From assembly GCF_006345805.1 (NCBI RefSeq), contig NC_043021.1, forward strand, positions 20,584,001 through 20,648,000: a stretch of DNA of 64,000 nucleotides, given 5' to 3'. The notes under the pieces were generated by a model. That model was not told where the DNA came from and did no database searches. It saw only the letters and a list, made by a program, of their open reading frames with translations. Both the position numbers and the translations under genes were made by a program. Positions 10,527 through 57,411 of the stretch are shown here, piece after piece (position 1 is the first letter of the stretch; the number at the start of each line of letters is the position of its first letter). Source of the DNA: Octopus sinensis (lineage: Eukaryota).

Positions 10527-11292
10527 GGATCTTTACCTTTTGACCTACAGATTTAAAAAATAATTTTTTGTAACTAAACACTTTCAAACTTCGGACATTG
10601 GTAGAATGTGTCATATGAAACATCTTTTACTCTTAGCATTTTTGAGAAAAAAACCTATATTTACGAAGATATTTCACGTTAAAGTAGTCCTATTTCGGTA
10701 ATTTCAACCAATCAATGACGTGTATTCAGATGAATAAAATTACTGCCATTGTTTGTGAACAACAACTTCCGGCGGGGTATTTTTCATTTGTCACTGTTAT
10801 TTATGACAACTCTAACCCTAAAACTTTAACCCTAACCCTAAAACCTTAACCTAACCCTGAAACCCTAACCCTAAGACCTTAACCATAACACCCTAACCCT
10901 AAAACCCAAACCCTAAAATCCTAACCCTAAAACCTTAACCCTAACCCTGAAACCCTAACCCTAAGACCTTAACCATAACACCCTAACCCTAAAACCCAAA
11001 CCCTAAAACCCTAACCCTAAAACCTTAAAGCTAAAACCAGTACAAACGCACGAACGATGTCATAAATAACAGTGACAAATGAAAACTACGCCGCCGATAA
11101 TTGTTGTTGACAAACTGATTGATTGAAATTACCGAAATACGAGAATTTTAAGGTGAAATATCTTCGTAAATATAAGTTTTTTCTCAAAAATGCTAAGAGT
11201 AAAACATGTTTTATATGACACATTCTACCAGTGTCCGTAGTTTGAAAGTGCTTAGTTACAAAAAATAATTTTTTAAATCTGTAGGTCAAAAG
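10527..11292. mobile_element. Foldback/MITE element with long inverted arms around a telomere-like core
   Basis: The left arm (10527-10808, begins GGATCTTT) is the reverse complement of the right arm (11058-11292), apart from an indel. Confidence 0.8.
10811..11036 (+). repeat. Degenerate (CCCTAA)n telomere-like array with a 90-nt higher-order repeat
   Basis: CCCTAA, CCCTAAAA and CCTTAA units. The block starting at 10851 recurs at 10941. Confidence 0.9.
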
Positions 11293-49197: not shown

Positions 49198-49258
49198 GAA
49201 ACTCTCGAAGACATAGACAAAGATAAAGATGGAAAAGTCAGTCTTGAAGAATACATAA
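49198..49258 (+). CDS. CALU: Calumenin-like, coding exon 5 (EF4)
   Basis: CAG/GTAAGT boundaries. Encodes ETLEDIDKDKDGKVSLEEYI. Phase 0 to 1. Confidence 0.95.
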
Positions 49259-49353
49259 GTAAGTTTTTTATTATTGAATTATTATTGAATTTTAAAATGA
49301 TTAATATACATGGTTGGTCAAAAGTCACCCAACAGTAAATCAAAATTTCATAA

Positions 49354-49741
49354 ATAGGCGTAGGAGTGGCTGTGTGGTAAGTAGCTTGCTTACCAACCAC
49401 ATAGTTCTGGGTTCAGTCCCACTGCATGGCACCTTGGGCAAGTGTCTTCTACTATAGCCTCGGGCCGACCAATGCCTTGTGAGTGGATTTGATAGACGGA
49501 AACTGAAAGAAGCCCGTTGTATATATGTATGTGTTTGTGTGTCTGTGTTTGTCCTCCCATTCAACATCGCTTGACAACCGATGCTGGTGTGTTTACGTCC
49601 CCGTAACTTAGTGGTTCGGCAAAAGAGACCGATAGAATAAGTACTAGGCTTACAAAGAATAAGTCTTGGGATCGATTTGCTCGACTAAAGGCGGTGCTCC
49701 AGCATGGCCGCAGTCAAATGACTGAAACAAGTAAAAGAGTA
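49354..49741 (+). mobile_element. SINE family A, full length (intron 5)
   Basis: ATAGGCGTAGGAGTGG head to GTAAAAGAGT tail. Confidence 0.9.
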
Positions 49742-49749
49742 AATATTCA

Positions 49750-50654
49750 ACATTTAATGAAACTGTCACTGGCGGTAACTGTTTCGAAATGCTGAACGAA
49801 TATGTCTTTCCGCAGCTGTGTGACAGGCCAGAATTTAATACTTTGCTGTTTGTGCAAGGTGGTGTGCGTCCCCATTATGCCAAAAAGGTACCTGATCTGT
49901 TGGACACTTTGCCTGCAGGTTGGATTGGACATAGAGGGCCTATTGAACGGGATCCACATTCGTGTAACCTCACACCAATGGACTTTAGTATTTGGGGAAT
50001 GATGAAAGATCAAGTTTTTAATAGAAAACCAAGGACTCTAGCTGAGTTGCAAGTTGCCATAGCAACTGAATTTGAACTAATTGATGCAAAATAAGGTACT
50101 TTGTCATACTATACTCTTTACTCTTTTACTTGTTTCAGTCATTTGACTGCGGCCATGCTGGAGCACCGCCTTTAATCGAGCAACTCGACCCCGGGACTTA
50201 TTCTTTTGTAAGCCCAGTACTTATTCTATCGGTCTCTTTTGCCGAACCGCTAATTAACAGAGACAGCAATGCTAGGGGGTCAAACACACACACACGCATA
50301 TATACTACAGGCTTCTTTCAGTTTCCGTCTACCAAATCCACTCACAAGGCTTTGGTCGGCCTGAGGCTATAGTAGAAGACACTTGCCCAAGGTGCCACAC
50401 AGTGGGACCGAACCTGGAACCATGTGGTTGGTAAGCAAGCTACTTACCACATAGCCACTCTTGCGCCTATCTGTAATTCTGTTTTGACTCGAATGGAAAA
50501 ATGTGTCGCTCAAGAAGGACTTCAGTTTGAACAATTTTCATGATGTTTCATATTTAGACGCTTTTATTAAATTCATTCAGTTGTCAAACACAAATAAATC
50601 TAGGAATTAAATGGTTTTGATTTACTGTCCAGGTGACTTTTGGCCAACCCTATA
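49750..50654 (+). mobile_element. Tc1/mariner-superfamily transposon relic (3' half), split by a SINE
   Basis: FVQGGVRPH...WIGHRGP...SCNLTPMDFSIWG.MKDQVF..KPRTLAEL (degenerate QDGAPPH/SPDLTPLDF). Resumes after the SINE as CNSVLTRMEKCVAQEGLQFEQF*. Ends TTTTGGCCAACCCTA-TA. Confidence 0.85.
50115..50470 (-). mobile_element. SINE family A inserted into the Tc1/mariner relic
   Basis: Reverse-complement copy, inverted relative to 49354-49741. Confidence 0.9.
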
Positions 50655-52121
50655 TGTAAAGAAATCTTTTATTGTTGAATAAGCTTATTGTAAAGTTCTG
50701 TTGTAGCTGCTAACGGCCACTCAAGCCAATTCTGTACTCTTATCATTGTATTGAGTAATCTAATTTCTAATATCTGATCATAACTTTGGTCCACTCCTAC
50801 CACTGTAGAAAATAATATAGTTTCCAGGAATTATTTTGGTCTAAACTGCTGTAATTATATCTTTAATCCATGCTGTACTTCTTTGCTCGTGTATACAGCT
50901 GAGTAGCAGTGATAAAATTCGAGCCTACATGGCTTTGACACCTTTGTGACTTGAAAACAAAGATTTCATGAAGGTTGTAGTTTTGCCGAAACAACCTTGA
51001 GTGCTACCTTCCCAATTATTGACTCTTTGAGCATTGTGCTTTAGAGAAAGATGAATTATTGGTCAATAACCCAAGCTGTTTTTTTTTTTATAAATTGCTT
51101 GTACTTCTTAAAGACAACAGGTTATAGAAAACTGCATGAACTTTGCTGTTGCGTTAAGTCATGCATTTGCAAGGCCCAAGATGTTATGAAATTTAATATT
51201 GTAACAATTGTTAAAAAACAGGGAACAGTTTTTACATTCTGAGTTCAAATTCTGCCAAAGGCAACTTTGACTCTCATCCTTTTGAGGTCAATAAAATTAA
51301 CACCTGGGGGTCAATGTAATTTTACGAAATTGCTGGCCTTGTGCCAAAATTTGAAATCAATATTGTAACAATAGTTTCGCATTTATTGGAGCCTAAGATG
51401 TGAAATTTAATAGTGTGATGGTAGTTTTACGTCTGTGAGGACCCAAGATGTTATGAAATGTTAACAAAAAGACTCTTTCGTTTGTTTTCTTTTTAAACAA
51501 ATTATTCCTTCAGCTAATTCATTTGTTTTGTACATATTTTGAACAGTTTGAGACAAACAAATATTTAATGCTGTATTTACAACGTTCTGTATAGTTTATA
51601 AAATTCCACTTTGTCACTTGTGCATGCAATTCCAGTAGGTTTTCTAACTCACTAAACTTACCAATATTCCAACAGACAAAACTGAATATTCTGGAATTTG
51701 TTTTTCTTTTCGAAATGTCTTGCCAAGGTTTGGTCACGCTTAGCAAGTTAAGTGATAGTTACTACCATTTGTATTGAAGGCACATGGCCCAGTGGTTAGA
51801 TCAGTGGGATCGCAGGTTCGAATCTGAGACCAGGCGACGTGTGTGTTTATGAGCGAAACACCTAAGCTCCCCGTGGCTCCGGCAGAAGGTAATGGCGACG
51901 AACTTCCGCTGACTCTTTCGCCACAAGTCTCATTCTTTCCTCCTGCATCTTGCAGCTCACCTGTCATGCACCGGCGCCCTGTCCAGGTGGGGAACCTATA
52001 CGCCAAGGAAACTGGGGAACTGGCCCTTATGAGCCAGGCGTAGCTTGAGAAGGAACAAACAATATTTACAGGAATGTGAGAGCAAAATGTCAAATGTATT
52101 GCTGTGTTCAACAGCTAAACA

Positions 52122-52519: not shown

Positions 52520-54336
52520 GTACTATGGTCAGCAGTAACTAAAGGCAATACTATGGTCAGTAGTAACTAAAGCATAGTGTTGCATTGAATAGTAAGAGCA
52601 CTCTGCAGTGTTGCTAACCATGTCTACAAATGGCATCATTAGAGAGAGAGAGAACGAGGCTACGTTAGCAAGCTGGCAGAATCGTTAGTGTGCCAAACAA
52701 AATACTTAGCGCCAGTCCTTCCAGCTTTGTTCTGAGTTCAAATCCTGCCGAGGTCAACTTTGCCTTTCATTCTTTCGGGGCTGATAAAATAAGTACTGTT
52801 TGAGCACCGGGGTCTCTGTAATTTATTAACCCCTCCCTCGAAAATTGCTGGCCCTGTGCCAGAATTAGAAAGAACTCTGGAGTGGGGCCTGGGCACTTAA
52901 CAGGCAGAATTGTTAGAACATCAGACAAAATACCTTGTGCTGTTTGTCTTGGTCCTTTACATTCTGAGGTTGATTTTTCCCTTCCATCTTTTTAGGGTTA
53001 ATGTAATACTATATTATATTATACTGACTGACCCCCTGTTCCCTTAAATTTGCTGGTGTTGTGCCTAAATTAGAAAAAATTATTACAGAGACACTAAGGC
53101 AGAAAGCTGGCAGAATCGTTAGCACATTGGGCAAAATGCTTAGTGGCATTTCATTGGTTTTTACGTTCTGAGTTCAAATTCTGTTGAGGTTGACTCTGGC
53201 TTTCATTCTTTTGGGGTTCGGTAAAATGAGTACCAGTTGAGTACTGAGGTCAATGTAGTTGATTTGACTCTTCTGCTGGTCTGGTGCCAAAATTTGAAGC
53301 CAATATTACACAGAGACCCTAAACTTATTGTTGGCAGTTGTTCCTCTTCATGATTGATGTTGGCTGTGATCTAAAATTATGACATGAAGTTCAGCCGACA
53401 GAAGCCTGTGAGAGAACCTTTTATGTGGCCTCTATGCCTGCTAGAAATAGCAGCTGAATGGCTAATGTGTACAGTTTCCTTCTTACCATGTTAATTAGTT
53501 AAGGCAGCTATGTTAGTGTCTTGCATATGCAAGTAGGTTTCTATCTAAAGAAGGTCAACCTTTATCTAACTGTTGCAGATCCTTACTGCAAGTTTGGACC
53601 CTGATTTTGAATGACCTTAAATGGATTGGCTAAATTGTTAAGTACGTCAGAAAAAGAAGCTTTGCAGTATTTGTTCCAGCTCTTTATATTCTGAGTTCAA
53701 ATCCTGTCTAAGTCAACTTTGCCTTTCATCCTTTCGGCTAAAATATATATAGCAGTCTGGAACTGGAGTCAAAGTTACTGGTTTTCTGCTTAAGTTAGAA
53801 ACAAAATATTTGGCACATAAGTTCAAATAATAGGAATGGTTTCATTGGTCTTTACTGAGTTGTTATGATTTTTTATTATTATTATTGTGTTATTACTTTG
53901 CTTGGGAGACTGGCAAGAGTTGGCATTTGGCCACATAAGATCTGCCTCAGTAAACTCTGTCTGACTCATACAAGTGTGGCAAAGTGGATGTTGAGACAGT
54001 GATGATGTGTTCTCGTCTACTTGATGTCTGTGACGTAATTTAACAACTAACACCTGACCCTTGTAGGCATTTGGATCAAGTCTCTTTCCTGAGGAGCACT
54101 TGGTATCTTGATGCAGCAATCTACAAATTGTGGGTTCTTCCTCTTGCTTTCAAAGGCTCCTTAAAAGTCCCTGCTGATTGAGGCCTCTCCTACTCTAACC
54201 TATGCCATATAAAAAGATAAATACATCACCTTCGTTTAATTATGTTCCTCCCTTCTACTAATGTAACAGTGACAAAGTTGTTTGGTGAAATTGTAATAAT
54301 TCTACTGTTAATTGGAATGTTAACTTACGTTCATAG

Positions 54337-54548
54337 CTGATATATACGGAAATGAAGATGAAGATGATGAGGATGAAGATGACCCAGATTGGGTCAACGA
54401 GGAAAAGGAGCAGTTCCACAATTTCCGTGATAAAAACAAAGACGGCTTCTTGGACAAAGCCGAGGTGACAGAATGGTTGATTCCCGAGGAGTTTAATCAC
54501 CTTGATACTGAAGTATCTCACCTTGTGAGGACGTCTGATGTGGATCAG
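54337..54548 (+). CDS. CALU: Calumenin-like, alternative coding exon 6a (acidic linker, EF5, start of EF6)
   Basis: TAG/GTGTGT boundaries, 212 nt, phase 1 to 0, no stops. Encodes (T)DIYGNEDEDDEDEDDPDWVNEEKEQFHNFRDKNKDGFLDKAEVTEWLIPEEFNHLDTEVSHLVRTSDVDQ. Missed by the ORF track. Confidence 0.85.
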
Positions 54549-55111
54549 GTGTGTAATAGAGCATTGCCGGTGCAATGCATGAGAAACTGCTCAACAAACT
54601 TATAGAATTTTAACACTTCGAGCCTATTTCATGTAGAAAGTAAAGCAGTGTAGCAGAAAGCTGATGACGGTTCATCTCTTGTGATTTCTTCCAGTTCCCC
54701 CAAAAAAGACAGATCTGGAATCAATCATTTCATACCTTTCCTCTTGTGGCACTTATCTACCAGACATTTTACTGCTGACTTTTTTTTGATAAAATAGACA
54801 GAACCTCAAGAATATAACACGTGGCCATTGAAAGGATTGTGCAAAGAGAACTAATTATTTTTTTATTTATGTCAACATTAGCTTCTCGTACAAGGTTGCT
54901 AAATTTACTATTGTCTTCTCAATCTATTTGTAAAATTAACTGAATTTTGTATAAAAATTTGAAAATTTTCTTCTCTGAAATATATATATATATTTATATA
55001 TACATTTCTTTTAAAAAAAATTGAAGTATTGTGTATTCAATGAGTTTGTTGAGCAGATATTTTGACTTGATTTTTTGACGTATGTTTTGATGACGGCTTT
55101 GCCATTTGTAG

Positions 55112-55314
55112 GTGACATGTGGCCCGGGGATAAGGAGGGAGAGCCAGAACCCGATTGGGTTAAAGGTGAGCGCGAGCAGTTCTCCAACTATAGAGACAAA
55201 AATGGTGATCATATGATGGACAAAGCGGAAGTGAGGGAATGGCTTCTTCCCTCTGATTACGATCATTCAATTGCCGAAGCAAGCCATTTAATTTATGAGT
55301 CAGATAAGAACAAG
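55112..55314 (+). CDS. CALU: Calumenin-like, alternative coding exon 6b (canonical-type EF5, start of EF6)
   Basis: TAG/GTTTGT boundaries, 203 nt, phase 1 to 0. Encodes (S)[67 protein letters not shown]. Confidence 0.92.
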
Positions 55315-57306
55315 GTTTGTAACAGTGAACACTACTGCTTGTCCTTGCCCTTGTTTTAAGGTTTTGTGGTTGCACTTAACTGAAAGCAGGCTGTTTATTG
55401 TTGTTTTAATGTGTTTTCTAATTCTGTTTTCTCTCTCTTCACTCTAACTCTGTAACAATCTTTCTCACTCTCCTCTCCGTCTTTGAGCCACTCTGCTATG
55501 TTATTTCATGGAATTCATAAAAATTAATCGCTCTCTATTCCCATAACAAAGGCAGCAAGCTGACAAAATATTTAGCATGTCAGGTAAAACACTTCAAGGC
55601 ATTTCTTGTGGCTCTGTGCTCTGAGTTCAAATGCTACCAAGGTCAACTTCACCTTTCATCTCGCAGGGGTCGGTAACCAGCCTTATGAATCCCGAGTTCA
55701 AAAACTAAAAAAAAAAAAAAAAATTTGGCCCTTTAGCATTCAGATTACTCTGTCAAATGTAATGCTTATTGATTCACATGGTTTTGAATTAAACATGTAA
55801 TATCTCATAGCTTTGAGATTTCAATGATGCAATTTGTTTATTTTAGAATGTAGGGCTGGTGTGAGAGATCAGATCTGTCCAGTTTGAACATAAAACCGGT
55901 TGAATATTTTTTTGGCCCGATATGGCTGGTTTAAATGCTGAAGAGTTAAACTGCTTTTGGCAGTATAAGGGCCAATAGTATTTAGGGGGGTTTTTTTCCT
56001 CTGTAAGAAAAATGAATTACCTTTGAAAAATCTCTAATATTTAAAACCTTTTTTTCATATTCTATTTCATGAAATTCCATTAACAGAAAAACTCCTTTAG
56101 ATTTATTTTCTTCTGATATTGTCTCTCCTTGCATTTTCTTTATGGTGTTGGTCTCCTTGGTGAGCTTTGTTTGTTACCCTATATATTGTGTGTGTGTGTG
56201 TGTGTGTATGATAATTGAGCACATGGCCTGATGGTTTAGGGTGTCACATTCATAACCACAAGGTTGTGGTTTCAATTCTTCAACTGGGTAATGTGTTGTG
56301 TTCTTGAGCAAAACAGTTAATTTCATGTTACTCTGCAATCACTTCAACATTTGATGTGTGGGAAACCACGGCCCCTGTACAGGTAATGTTCATTTGGAAA
56401 AAAAGGGAGTGAGGGTTAAAATTGCATATATTATGAAACTTCTCATGTTGAACTTGTGCATGCTAATGGATTATATATTTACTCCTCACTAGACACACAC
56501 ACATTGGCGTTTACTGATGTGACACCTGAATTTTTCTACACCAGAAGAATTTCAATCTTATTTAAGGCTACAATTCAAGAGGGTATTTAGCTTTAAGGAC
56601 TGGACTTGCTCCATCTTTCTACTCTTCTGGGACCTTAACTCTTTTGGTTCCAAACTGTCAAAGACTGCCCTTCATTTAATGTTACAGACTCTAGGTTTTA
56701 AAGGGATCTAAATTTCCTTTTAAATTTTATGTTATATTATGTTCCAAAGATAATTATTTTTAATATTATTTTAAAAATTGACAGACAAACTGTATATTAA
56801 CTGAAATATGATAAAAGGGTTGGGCCTCACTGGCTGAGGTGTTGGGGTTTGCTGTGCTTGAAAAGACACGTCAAACTAGATAGAATTATGATCATCCATA
56901 CATACAAGCATGCCCTTTGCAGATGCCATGTGAAATGCACTACATGTTGGTGCTGCGTAAACACACTTGTGCTGGTGGCAGGTAAAAAGCACCCAACACA
57001 TTCTGTGAATTGGTTAGCATTAGGAAGGACATCCAACTGCAGAAACCATGCCAAAACAGCTGGAGTCTGGACAGCTGCCCAACTCGTGTCAAACTCTCCA
57101 ACCCATGCCAGCATGGGAAATGGATATTAAATGATGATGATGATGATCTATATGGCTGTTCAGTTTCCAAAGTGTTAAACAGATCATGCCTCTTTTATTC
57201 AGGGGAGTAGAAACTTAAAGAAATTCATTGTTATGTAATGTATAGTTACCATTTTCAGCTCAGCTTGTCCAAAGATTAAATTTCTGTTTTTTCTTTCTCT
57301 TTACAG

Positions 57307-57411
57307 GACGGTAAATTATCCAAAAATGAGATCCTGGACAAATACGATCTCTTTGTTGGCAGCCAAGCTACGGATTTTGGTGAAGCTTTGAAGTCTCATG
57401 ATGAGTTTTAA
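57307..57411 (+). CDS. CALU: Calumenin-like, last coding exon (end of EF6, HDEF ER-retrieval signal)
   Basis: Acceptor TTACAG. Encodes [34 protein letters not shown]; HDEF is the calumenin C-terminus. The spliced protein is 318 aa with 6b or 321 aa with 6a, counted from ATG 40520. Confidence 0.95.

Follow-up and report, generated by a model that had tools for sequence, protein, structure and literature searches.

The calumenin gene of Octopus sinensis carries two homologous exons, 6a and 6b, that are used in a mutually exclusive manner, and the intron between them can form a long-range RNA stem that we consider probably functional, whichever role is ascribed to it. By analogy with characterized systems, we tentatively view this stem as an RNA bridge of the FGFR2 IAS2-ISAR or SCN9A type, which would set the choice between 6a and 6b. 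The sequence analyzed, hereafter called the window, is a 64-kb stretch corresponding to positions 20,584,001 to 20,648,000 of the forward strand of NC_043021.1 (assembly GCF_006345805.1).

Two mutually exclusive exons in octopus calumenin

The region of interest in the window covers the 3′ portion of a calumenin gene (CREC family, EF-hand), located on the plus strand. The relevant exons are as follows, with the EF-hands numbered according to our own count of the loops.

49198 to 49258, plus strand: exon 5, constitutive, coding for EF-hand 4 and ending in phase 1; defined by its borders, its last 30 nucleotides (nt) make up the loose end that precedes 55112 in runs X3, X10, and X20 of RNA
54337 to 54548, plus strand: alternative exon 6a, 212 nt, the acidic variant, coding for the linker, EF-hand 5, and the start of EF-hand 6; joined to exon 7 in X3 and X10
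55112 to 55314, plus strand: alternative exon 6b, 203 nt, the canonical calumenin-type variant; 5-6b and 6b-7 ends in X3, X10, and X20
57307 to 57411, plus strand: exon 7, the last coding exon, terminating in HDEF-stop; its first 26 to 27 nt form the loose ends behind 6a and 6b

Exons 6a and 6b are 53% identical over 62 amino acids and share their phases, both being entered in phase 1 and left in phase 0. The reading frame to HDEF is intact for 5+6a+7 and for 5+6b+7. Double inclusion (5+6a+6b+7) shifts the frame and brings a premature stop 98 nt before the last junction, and double skipping (5+7) leads to a stop just inside the last exon. In the segment encoded by 6a, the acidic linker is longer and the EF loop canonical, and that encoded by 6b has a His in place of the loop Gly; in a Pfam EF-hand search, 6a matched below the cut-off and 6b gave no EF-hand match at an E value of 0.05. 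Both isoforms are already present in public gene annotations. Part of an Octopus vulgaris calumenin isoform is 100% identical to exon 6a, and the protein cluster of that isoform also includes O. sinensis, O. bimaculoides, and Argonauta, while exon 6b matches a second O. bimaculoides isoform (P0008). A segment of a second CREC-family gene (G000:C7:97050270-97050449, locus L026) is 53% identical to exon 6b.

RNA evidence for the use of the two exons came from contigs of 4 of the 24 listed runs (X3, X6, X10, and X20). The X3 and X10 contigs break off at three splice sites, the donor of 6a and both the acceptor and the donor of 6b, and their loose ends match the beginning of exon 7 and the final part of exon 5. 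X20 represents a relative approximately 92 to 95% identical in the exons, in which 5-6b and 6b-7 are visible, and X6 shows a 6a-7-like end. No 6a-6b joint was listed in any of the four runs; since contigs drop rare forms, double inclusion might still occur rarely. The 5-6a junction sits at a skipped repeat, and annotated proteins alone document it. X20 leaves the middle intron uncovered; X6 and X10 show the same gap with 0.75 to 0.79 of the words present, which makes it a filter effect and uninformative. The initial annotation had proposed that 6a and 6b are alternative exons. Their separate splicing (6a-7, 5-6b, and 6b-7) and the lack of a joint between them in these runs bear this out, and 6a/6b is a real mutually exclusive pair of homologous exons.

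Two further observations were made in these runs. In X6, which is a very large run, an 82-nt contig covering 54520 to 54549 runs from the last bases of 6a into a start that resembles exon 7, with a few differences, and may stem from RNA or from a processed copy. In X20, the intron stretches 54256 to 54336, which runs from a TACTAAT motif to 6a, and 55370 to 55400, after 6b, are approximately 92 to 97% kept, a level comparable to that of the exons, making them candidate conserved regulatory elements.

Age of the exon pair

The exon pair is not confined to octopuses and is also seen in gastropods, bivalves, and one annelid. Among the 61 homologues listed, separate isoforms with 6a-type and 6b-type segments occur in Physella, Sinanodonta, Pecten, and Saccostrea; in Patella and Mytilus, the two types are split between congeners; and Solemya, Elysia marginata, Crassostrea angulata, and the annelid Ridgeia have the a-then-b tandem inside single predicted proteins. 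All 18 6a-type exons fall on one side of a branch in an exon tree (53 rows, 71 columns, bootstrap not settled), with a support of 63/66 only. Sequence comparison allows a single old duplication to lie behind 6a and 6b across molluscs. Within the set of public proteins P0001 to P0126, the predictions P0011, P0012, P0013, and P0024 fuse both exons, wrongly or doubtfully.

In the same gene family, vertebrate CALU also has a pair of homologous, mutually exclusive exons coding for an EF-hand. As described in PMC4494069, that pair, which originated in jawed vertebrates, codes for the first EF-hand, and its two exons lie 72 nt apart; by this description, the octopus pair, which codes for the fifth EF-hand region, represents a separate duplication.

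A long-range stem between exons 6a and 6b

The elements of the intron that separates 6a from 6b are listed in 5′-to-3′ order.

54561 to 54578, plus strand: predicted local hairpin of 7 bp with a 4-nt loop (−9.7 kcal/mol), downstream of the 6a donor and upstream of the left arm
54576 to 54581, plus strand: UGCAUG, an Rbfox-family motif and candidate site, 5 nt upstream of the left arm; it shares bases with the 3′ side of the hairpin
54587 to 54621, plus strand: left arm of the duplex, from RNAduplex and partition-function folds
54622 to 55020, plus strand: looped-out segment of 399 nt, with an (AT)n tract and no Rfam family
55021 to 55056, plus strand: right arm of the duplex, whose terminal CAG is the last AG before the 6b acceptor
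55057 to 55111, plus strand: 6b branch and acceptor region, with candidate branch adenosines at 55065, 55078, 55090, and 55093 by consensus match only

RNAduplex joins the two AU-rich arms (23 G+C of 71 nt) by 31 pairs with an energy of −34.4 kcal/mol, arranged as 17 contiguous pairs that include one G-U, followed by helices of 4, 3, and 7 pairs. This confirms the arms that had been claimed, with their 17 contiguous pairs, single G-U, and extent of about 35 nt. The claimed geometry also stands, with the left arm 38 nt from the 6a donor, a loop of about 400 nt, the right arm 55 nt from the 6b acceptor, and branch candidates at 55065, 55078, and 55093, to which we add 55090. The 17 core pairs had a probability of 0.93 to 1.0 in all five partition-function runs, which covered three regions and temperatures of 20 and 37°C. 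The hairpin had a probability of 0.99 to 1.0 with the flanking exons folded in and 0.01 in the intron-only fold, in which its bases instead pair weakly with 55081 to 55109, over the 6b branch and pyrimidine region.

Is the stem an ordinary feature of this genome? The comparison with shuffled controls suggested in the initial annotation gave a divided answer. The best long-range 40-by-40-nt duplex reaches −32.7 kcal/mol, versus −21.9 ± 2.3 for the shuffles, none of 96 being as good; but the fold energy of the whole intron is only modestly below that of shuffles (z of −1.73; 5/100). Seventeen contiguous pairs including G-U were reached by 2 of 300 shuffles, 13 Watson-Crick pairs by none of 300, and 14 Watson-Crick pairs between the intron halves by 2 of 1,000. 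In the window itself, the same end-to-end duplex energy is found in 42 of 900 intron-sized tiles and in 12 of the 473 repeat-poor ones, 2 of which are the stem itself. Of the 1,262 helices of at least 14 bp, 21 lie outside the repeat mask. Six other uninterrupted, non-repeat helices spanning 100 to 600 nt, which belong to four distinct elements, are as strong or stronger in the 64 kb, and a fifth non-repeat element is only 0.1 kcal weaker than the stem. Stems of this strength occur about once per 13 to 16 kb of non-repeat sequence here. The genomic background is thus richer in stems than the shuffles; roughly, a given 563-nt intron has a 2 to 4% chance of holding such a stem, before the closeness of the arms to splice signals is counted.

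The arms do not look like the ends of a MITE or transposon. They lie outside the local repeat families, as had been claimed (repeat mask of 0.0). Matches with at most two mismatches elsewhere in 2.7 Gb number at least three for the left arm, for which 2.2 to 2.5 are expected, and at least two for the right arm, and the left-arm matches do not extend beyond the arm. A DNA search with the whole intron gave 11 other matches centered on the (AT)n tract, one of which (L008) reaches the right arm at 77% identity. Inspection of the arm flanks by eye revealed no TA, 3-, 4-, 8-, or 9-nt repeat that would represent a target-site duplication. A MITE or other element with terminal inverted repeats was thus ruled out, the ends being neither multi-copy nor flanked by a target-site duplication. 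An intronic snoRNA or other Rfam RNA was likewise rejected, with nothing at the gathering score and two chance-level matches (E values of 1.9 and 4.7), neither of them in the middle intron.

Elements resembling mobile DNA were found elsewhere in the window. At 49301 to 50660, imperfect terminal inverted repeats, starting 42 nt downstream of the donor of exon 5, enclose a transposase-like frame (49735 to 50094) with no Pfam match, which we take to resemble Tc1/mariner. At 10625 to 11204 lies a 580-nt MITE-like element, single copy in the window, with long, near-perfect inverted ends and three nested helices of 22 to 28 bp.

These background figures bear on a first alternative, that the stem is a neutral inverted repeat, arisen by chance or from a decayed mobile-element end, and that exclusivity comes from nonsense-mediated decay (NMD) and protein regulators. 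The 4 to 5 other non-repeat elements of equal strength in 64 kb, the 10 other repeat-poor tiles of 473 that reach the duplex energy, and the whole-intron z of only −1.73 are what this alternative would predict, and the premature stop that double inclusion would bring agrees with its second part. On the other hand, only about 2 to 4% of stretches hold such a stem, both arms here abut the inner splice signals, the stem is single copy, and its flanks are devoid of target-site duplication. Human frameshifting clusters, with joining reads in only 83 of 377 as given in PMC5740500, fit efficient decay or active prevention alike. On balance, we regard a neutral origin as somewhat unlikely.

No competing partner for either arm

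The initial annotation had likened the stem to the intronic pairings of Dscam, 14-3-3, and Mhc. What the stem has in common with Dscam1 (exons 4, 6, and 9), 14-3-3zeta, Mhc, and serpent is that distant intronic sites pair next to exons that are duplicated and mutually exclusive. However, docking site/selector systems are described as needing competing selectors and looped-out exons (PMC6071210, PMC4691838), features that those four genes have and the octopus stem lacks. Between 49259 and 57306, the best partner of each arm is the other arm (−35.8 kcal/mol for the left arm and −35.7 for the right), and the next-best partners (−20.1 and −21.9 kcal/mol) are scattered and 14 to 16 kcal/mol weaker. 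The right arm pairs at −14.3 kcal/mol with the 100 nt after 6b and at −13.5 kcal/mol with those after exon 5. No 11-nt match connects the middle intron with the downstream one, and the loop is purely intronic, with no exon looped out. We therefore rejected docking site/selector competition, given that there is neither a competing partner nor an exon in the loop, and abandoned the analogy.

A second known arrangement is that of ATE1, in which R1, a paralogous element upstream of exon 7a, is described as competing for pairing with R3, and R4 as spanning the acceptor region (PMC7797038). The octopus stem differs from the R1R3/R3R4 switch in that the 100 nt before 6a reach only −10.0 kcal/mol with the left arm, versus −35.8 for the stem, and in that the right arm stops 55 nt short of the acceptor; the acceptor tract is covered only by a weaker outer extension in some folds. 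An acceptor-masking switch of this type was rejected on both counts. The 6b acceptor (55100 to 55111) has a perfect 12-nt complement at 52624 to 52635, 1.7 kb upstream of 6a (15 to 16 bp with G-U, about −19 kcal/mol), which is at approximately chance level overall.

A possible RNA bridge with an Rbfox-type site

The stem is accompanied by the hexamer UGCAUG, the Rbfox-family motif (PMC2777236, PMC12772994). This is the sole copy between 54200 and 55450, with 35 copies in the 64-kb window. At this density of 0.55 per kb, a given 40-nt stretch would contain one by chance in about 2% of cases; as a single hexamer noticed post hoc, it is weak evidence. The earlier idea, in which the stem delivers regulators located close to the 6a donor to the branch site of 6b, gains a candidate regulator.

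Fox proteins are described as promoting an exon from its downstream intron and repressing it from its upstream intron (PMC2777236). With the stem shut, the UGCAUG, located 28 to 33 nt downstream of the 6a donor, would come to within approximately 15 to 45 nt of the 6b branch adenosines, versus about 500 nt in the linear intron. One bound Rbfox-type protein would then be downstream of 6a, in an activating position, and upstream of 6b, in a repressing position, and its binding would favor the acidic 6a isoform in cells expressing such a protein. Without an Rbfox-type protein, the motif would fold into the local hairpin and 6b would be used. Exclusivity would be backed by NMD of the double-inclusion mRNA, and crowding of the 6a donor and the 6b branch site might contribute to it. 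In this scheme, we infer four elements, namely, stem formation in vivo, Rbfox binding, the direction of its effect, and decay of double-inclusion mRNA.

In FGFR2, the intron that separates exon IIIb from exon IIIc contains both arms of the stem. The IAS2-ISAR stem is reported to activate IIIb and repress IIIc, with GCAUG and Fox-2 involved (PMC2471395, PMC2777236), and simultaneous inclusion or exclusion of IIIb and IIIc is described in a preprint as invoking NMD (PMC12772994). The octopus and FGFR2 systems share a non-competing intronic stem at a two-exon pair, a Fox motif nearby, and a frameshift upon double inclusion. They differ in the position of the motif, which in the descriptions of FGFR2 is downstream of ISAR and in exon IIIc and in octopus is upstream of the 5′ arm. 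The FGFR2 stem is also described as shared by species from sea urchin to human and as having been probed by mutation, whereas the octopus stem is a prediction; a relationship between the two at the sequence level is not expected. The same preprint describes in SCN9A a stem of −17 to −23.6 kcal/mol (ISRE1-ISRE2, in SCN-alpha genes) with an adjacent Rbfox2 site, which sets the 5a/5b ratio (PMC12772994). Likenesses to the octopus case are a stem of similar strength, an Rbfox motif beside one arm, and an effect on the ratio of duplicated exons; as a difference, both SCN9A arms are described downstream of the second exon, and the octopus arms lie between the two exons (PMC12772994).

The bridge reading draws support from the fact that the arms are single copy, have no competitor, and lie 38 and 55 nt from the inner splice sites. 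It is weakened because comparable stems occur in 2 to 4% of stretches and because, as detailed below, the changes seen in X3 are uninformative and a distant tandem-exon locus has no stem in the corresponding intron and carries its UGCAUG after the second exon.

Steric exclusion and other roles of the stem

The initial annotation had also suggested that the stem prevents joining of 6a to 6b. In its steric form, this alternative states that the stem and the hairpin at 54561 to 54578 shorten the distance between donor and branch point below the minimum tolerated by the spliceosome. The candidate branch adenosines at 55065, 55078, 55090, and 55093 precede the 6b acceptor by 47, 34, 22, and 19 nt, and a more distant branch point is unlikely because of the AGs at 55025 to 55055. 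Their linear distances to the 6a donor, 516 to 544 nt, are above the steric limits in use, 50 nt (PMC5740500) or 60 nt (PMC13762713). They decrease to 47, 60, 72, and 75 nt with the stem shut, and to 29, 42, 54, and 57 nt with both stem and hairpin. As modeled, the stem alone would block splicing only if 55065, the most distant candidate, served as branch point, and stem plus hairpin could block it.

This drop in distance (to 47 to 75 nt, or to 29 to 57 nt with the hairpin), the hairpin probability of 0.99 to 1.0 with the flanking exons, and the absence of a 6a-6b joint in the contigs of the four runs argue for steric exclusion, as does the human CALU exon pair, said in PMC4494069 to be merely 72 nt apart. 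Against it, the stem alone leaves a 93-nt intron, which is spliceable, three of the four branch candidates lie no closer than 60 nt, and stems that bridge splice sites are mostly described as promoting splicing (PMC11802352, PMC7404189). The hairpin is also replaced by another pairing in the intron-only fold. We consider a steric block unlikely.

To our knowledge, the published cases of steric exclusion, OGDH among them, rest on linear distance. The study of Dscam exon 17 reportedly deals with a two-exon cluster in which steric limit and structure are considered together, and its steric block is said to result from the linear closeness of the branch point or from a short intron. The linear distance in octopus exceeds 500 nt, and closeness would need folding. 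A broader proposal, which we see as distinctly unlikely, is that folding alone creates the steric block, with fewer than 50 single-stranded nt left between donor and branch point, that Rbfox on the hairpin toggles it, a single RNA element thereby providing exclusivity as well as tissue choice, and that the exon pair has been kept since the mollusc ancestor while other lineages use a different pairing geometry.

The stem might instead serve splicing fidelity by hiding cryptic acceptors, pairing the CAG at 55054 to 55056 and looping out an ACTAAT, U-tract, and AG at 54850 to 54881. It is true that the final bases of the right arm coincide with the last AG preceding the 6b acceptor, and that the loop contains this good branch-plus-AG combination; but cryptic sites of this kind are common and no use of a cryptic acceptor was seen in the four runs, which makes such a role improbable.

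Coleoids are known for heavy A-to-I editing. An imperfect, AU-rich duplex of 31 bp is a plausible ADAR substrate, and editing or ADAR binding might modulate use of the 6b acceptor. We hold this to be very improbable: the arms are intronic, so that no codon would be recoded, and X3, the one contig that spans them, has no A-to-G change in the arms, although contigs drop rare variants. The sole A-to-G change, at position 54674, belongs to the loop and may reflect an allelic difference. The exon-intron pairing of 54471 to 54484 with 54717 to 54730 (14 bp, −16.8) was rejected as an editing-complementary sequence, with a probability of 0.0 in three of three folds.

Conservation of the stem and a distant tandem-exon locus

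The contig from X3, which carries another species label, spans the intron with three substitutions and two indels, all in the loop. None of the 71 arm bases is changed, an outcome expected about half the time by chance.

A scan of metagenomes yielded at least eight calumenin loci, of which one has tandem exons (L016), four are genomic with a single exon 6 detected, and three are intronless; no loci were obtained from a scan of prokaryote genomes for orthologous introns. L016, a distant animal locus, has tandem calumenin exons at 1271 to 1479 and 1861 to 2057. Its 381-nt middle intron has no stem, the longest Watson-Crick match between the halves being 7 nt, and this absence adds to the case for a neutral origin of the octopus stem. 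L016 does have a perfect 16-bp pairing between 1540 to 1555, 59 nt after the donor of the first exon, and 2632 to 2647, 204 nt before the last exon, which loops out the second exon; none of 1,000 shuffles reached 16. This pairing shares its geometry with docking site/selector systems, only one selector having been found. A UGCAUG lies 8 nt after the donor of the second exon. The intron before the last exon also contains, at 2177 to 2396, a 220-nt near-perfect MITE-like fold-back (−113 kcal/mol), which indicates that inverted repeats are common there too.

The first exon of L016 falls outside the 6a group in the tree, so that its tandem may be an independent duplication. L016 counts against deep conservation of the octopus stem, and it mildly supports RNA pairing as a recurring mode of control at calumenin exon 6.

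Significance

Structure-guided mutually exclusive splicing has been documented in arthropods and vertebrates, and the class of mechanism is already known. The calumenin stem would most likely represent a further case of it, with the RNA bridge as the best-fitting known mechanism. In the titles and abstract starts of the papers listed by our searches, no mollusc calumenin case, exon pair, or stem is described; supplements or databases of predicted exons could hold the pair. Calumenin acquired an EF-hand exon pair twice independently, for the first hand in vertebrates and for the fifth in molluscs. If functional, the octopus stem would control the choice of fifth EF-hand and the acidity of the linker in a calcium-binding protein of the endoplasmic reticulum. 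It would also provide a compact (approximately 1 kb) two-exon test case in cephalopods, in which one could ask whether a stem imposes steric exclusion or only biases the choice between two exons.
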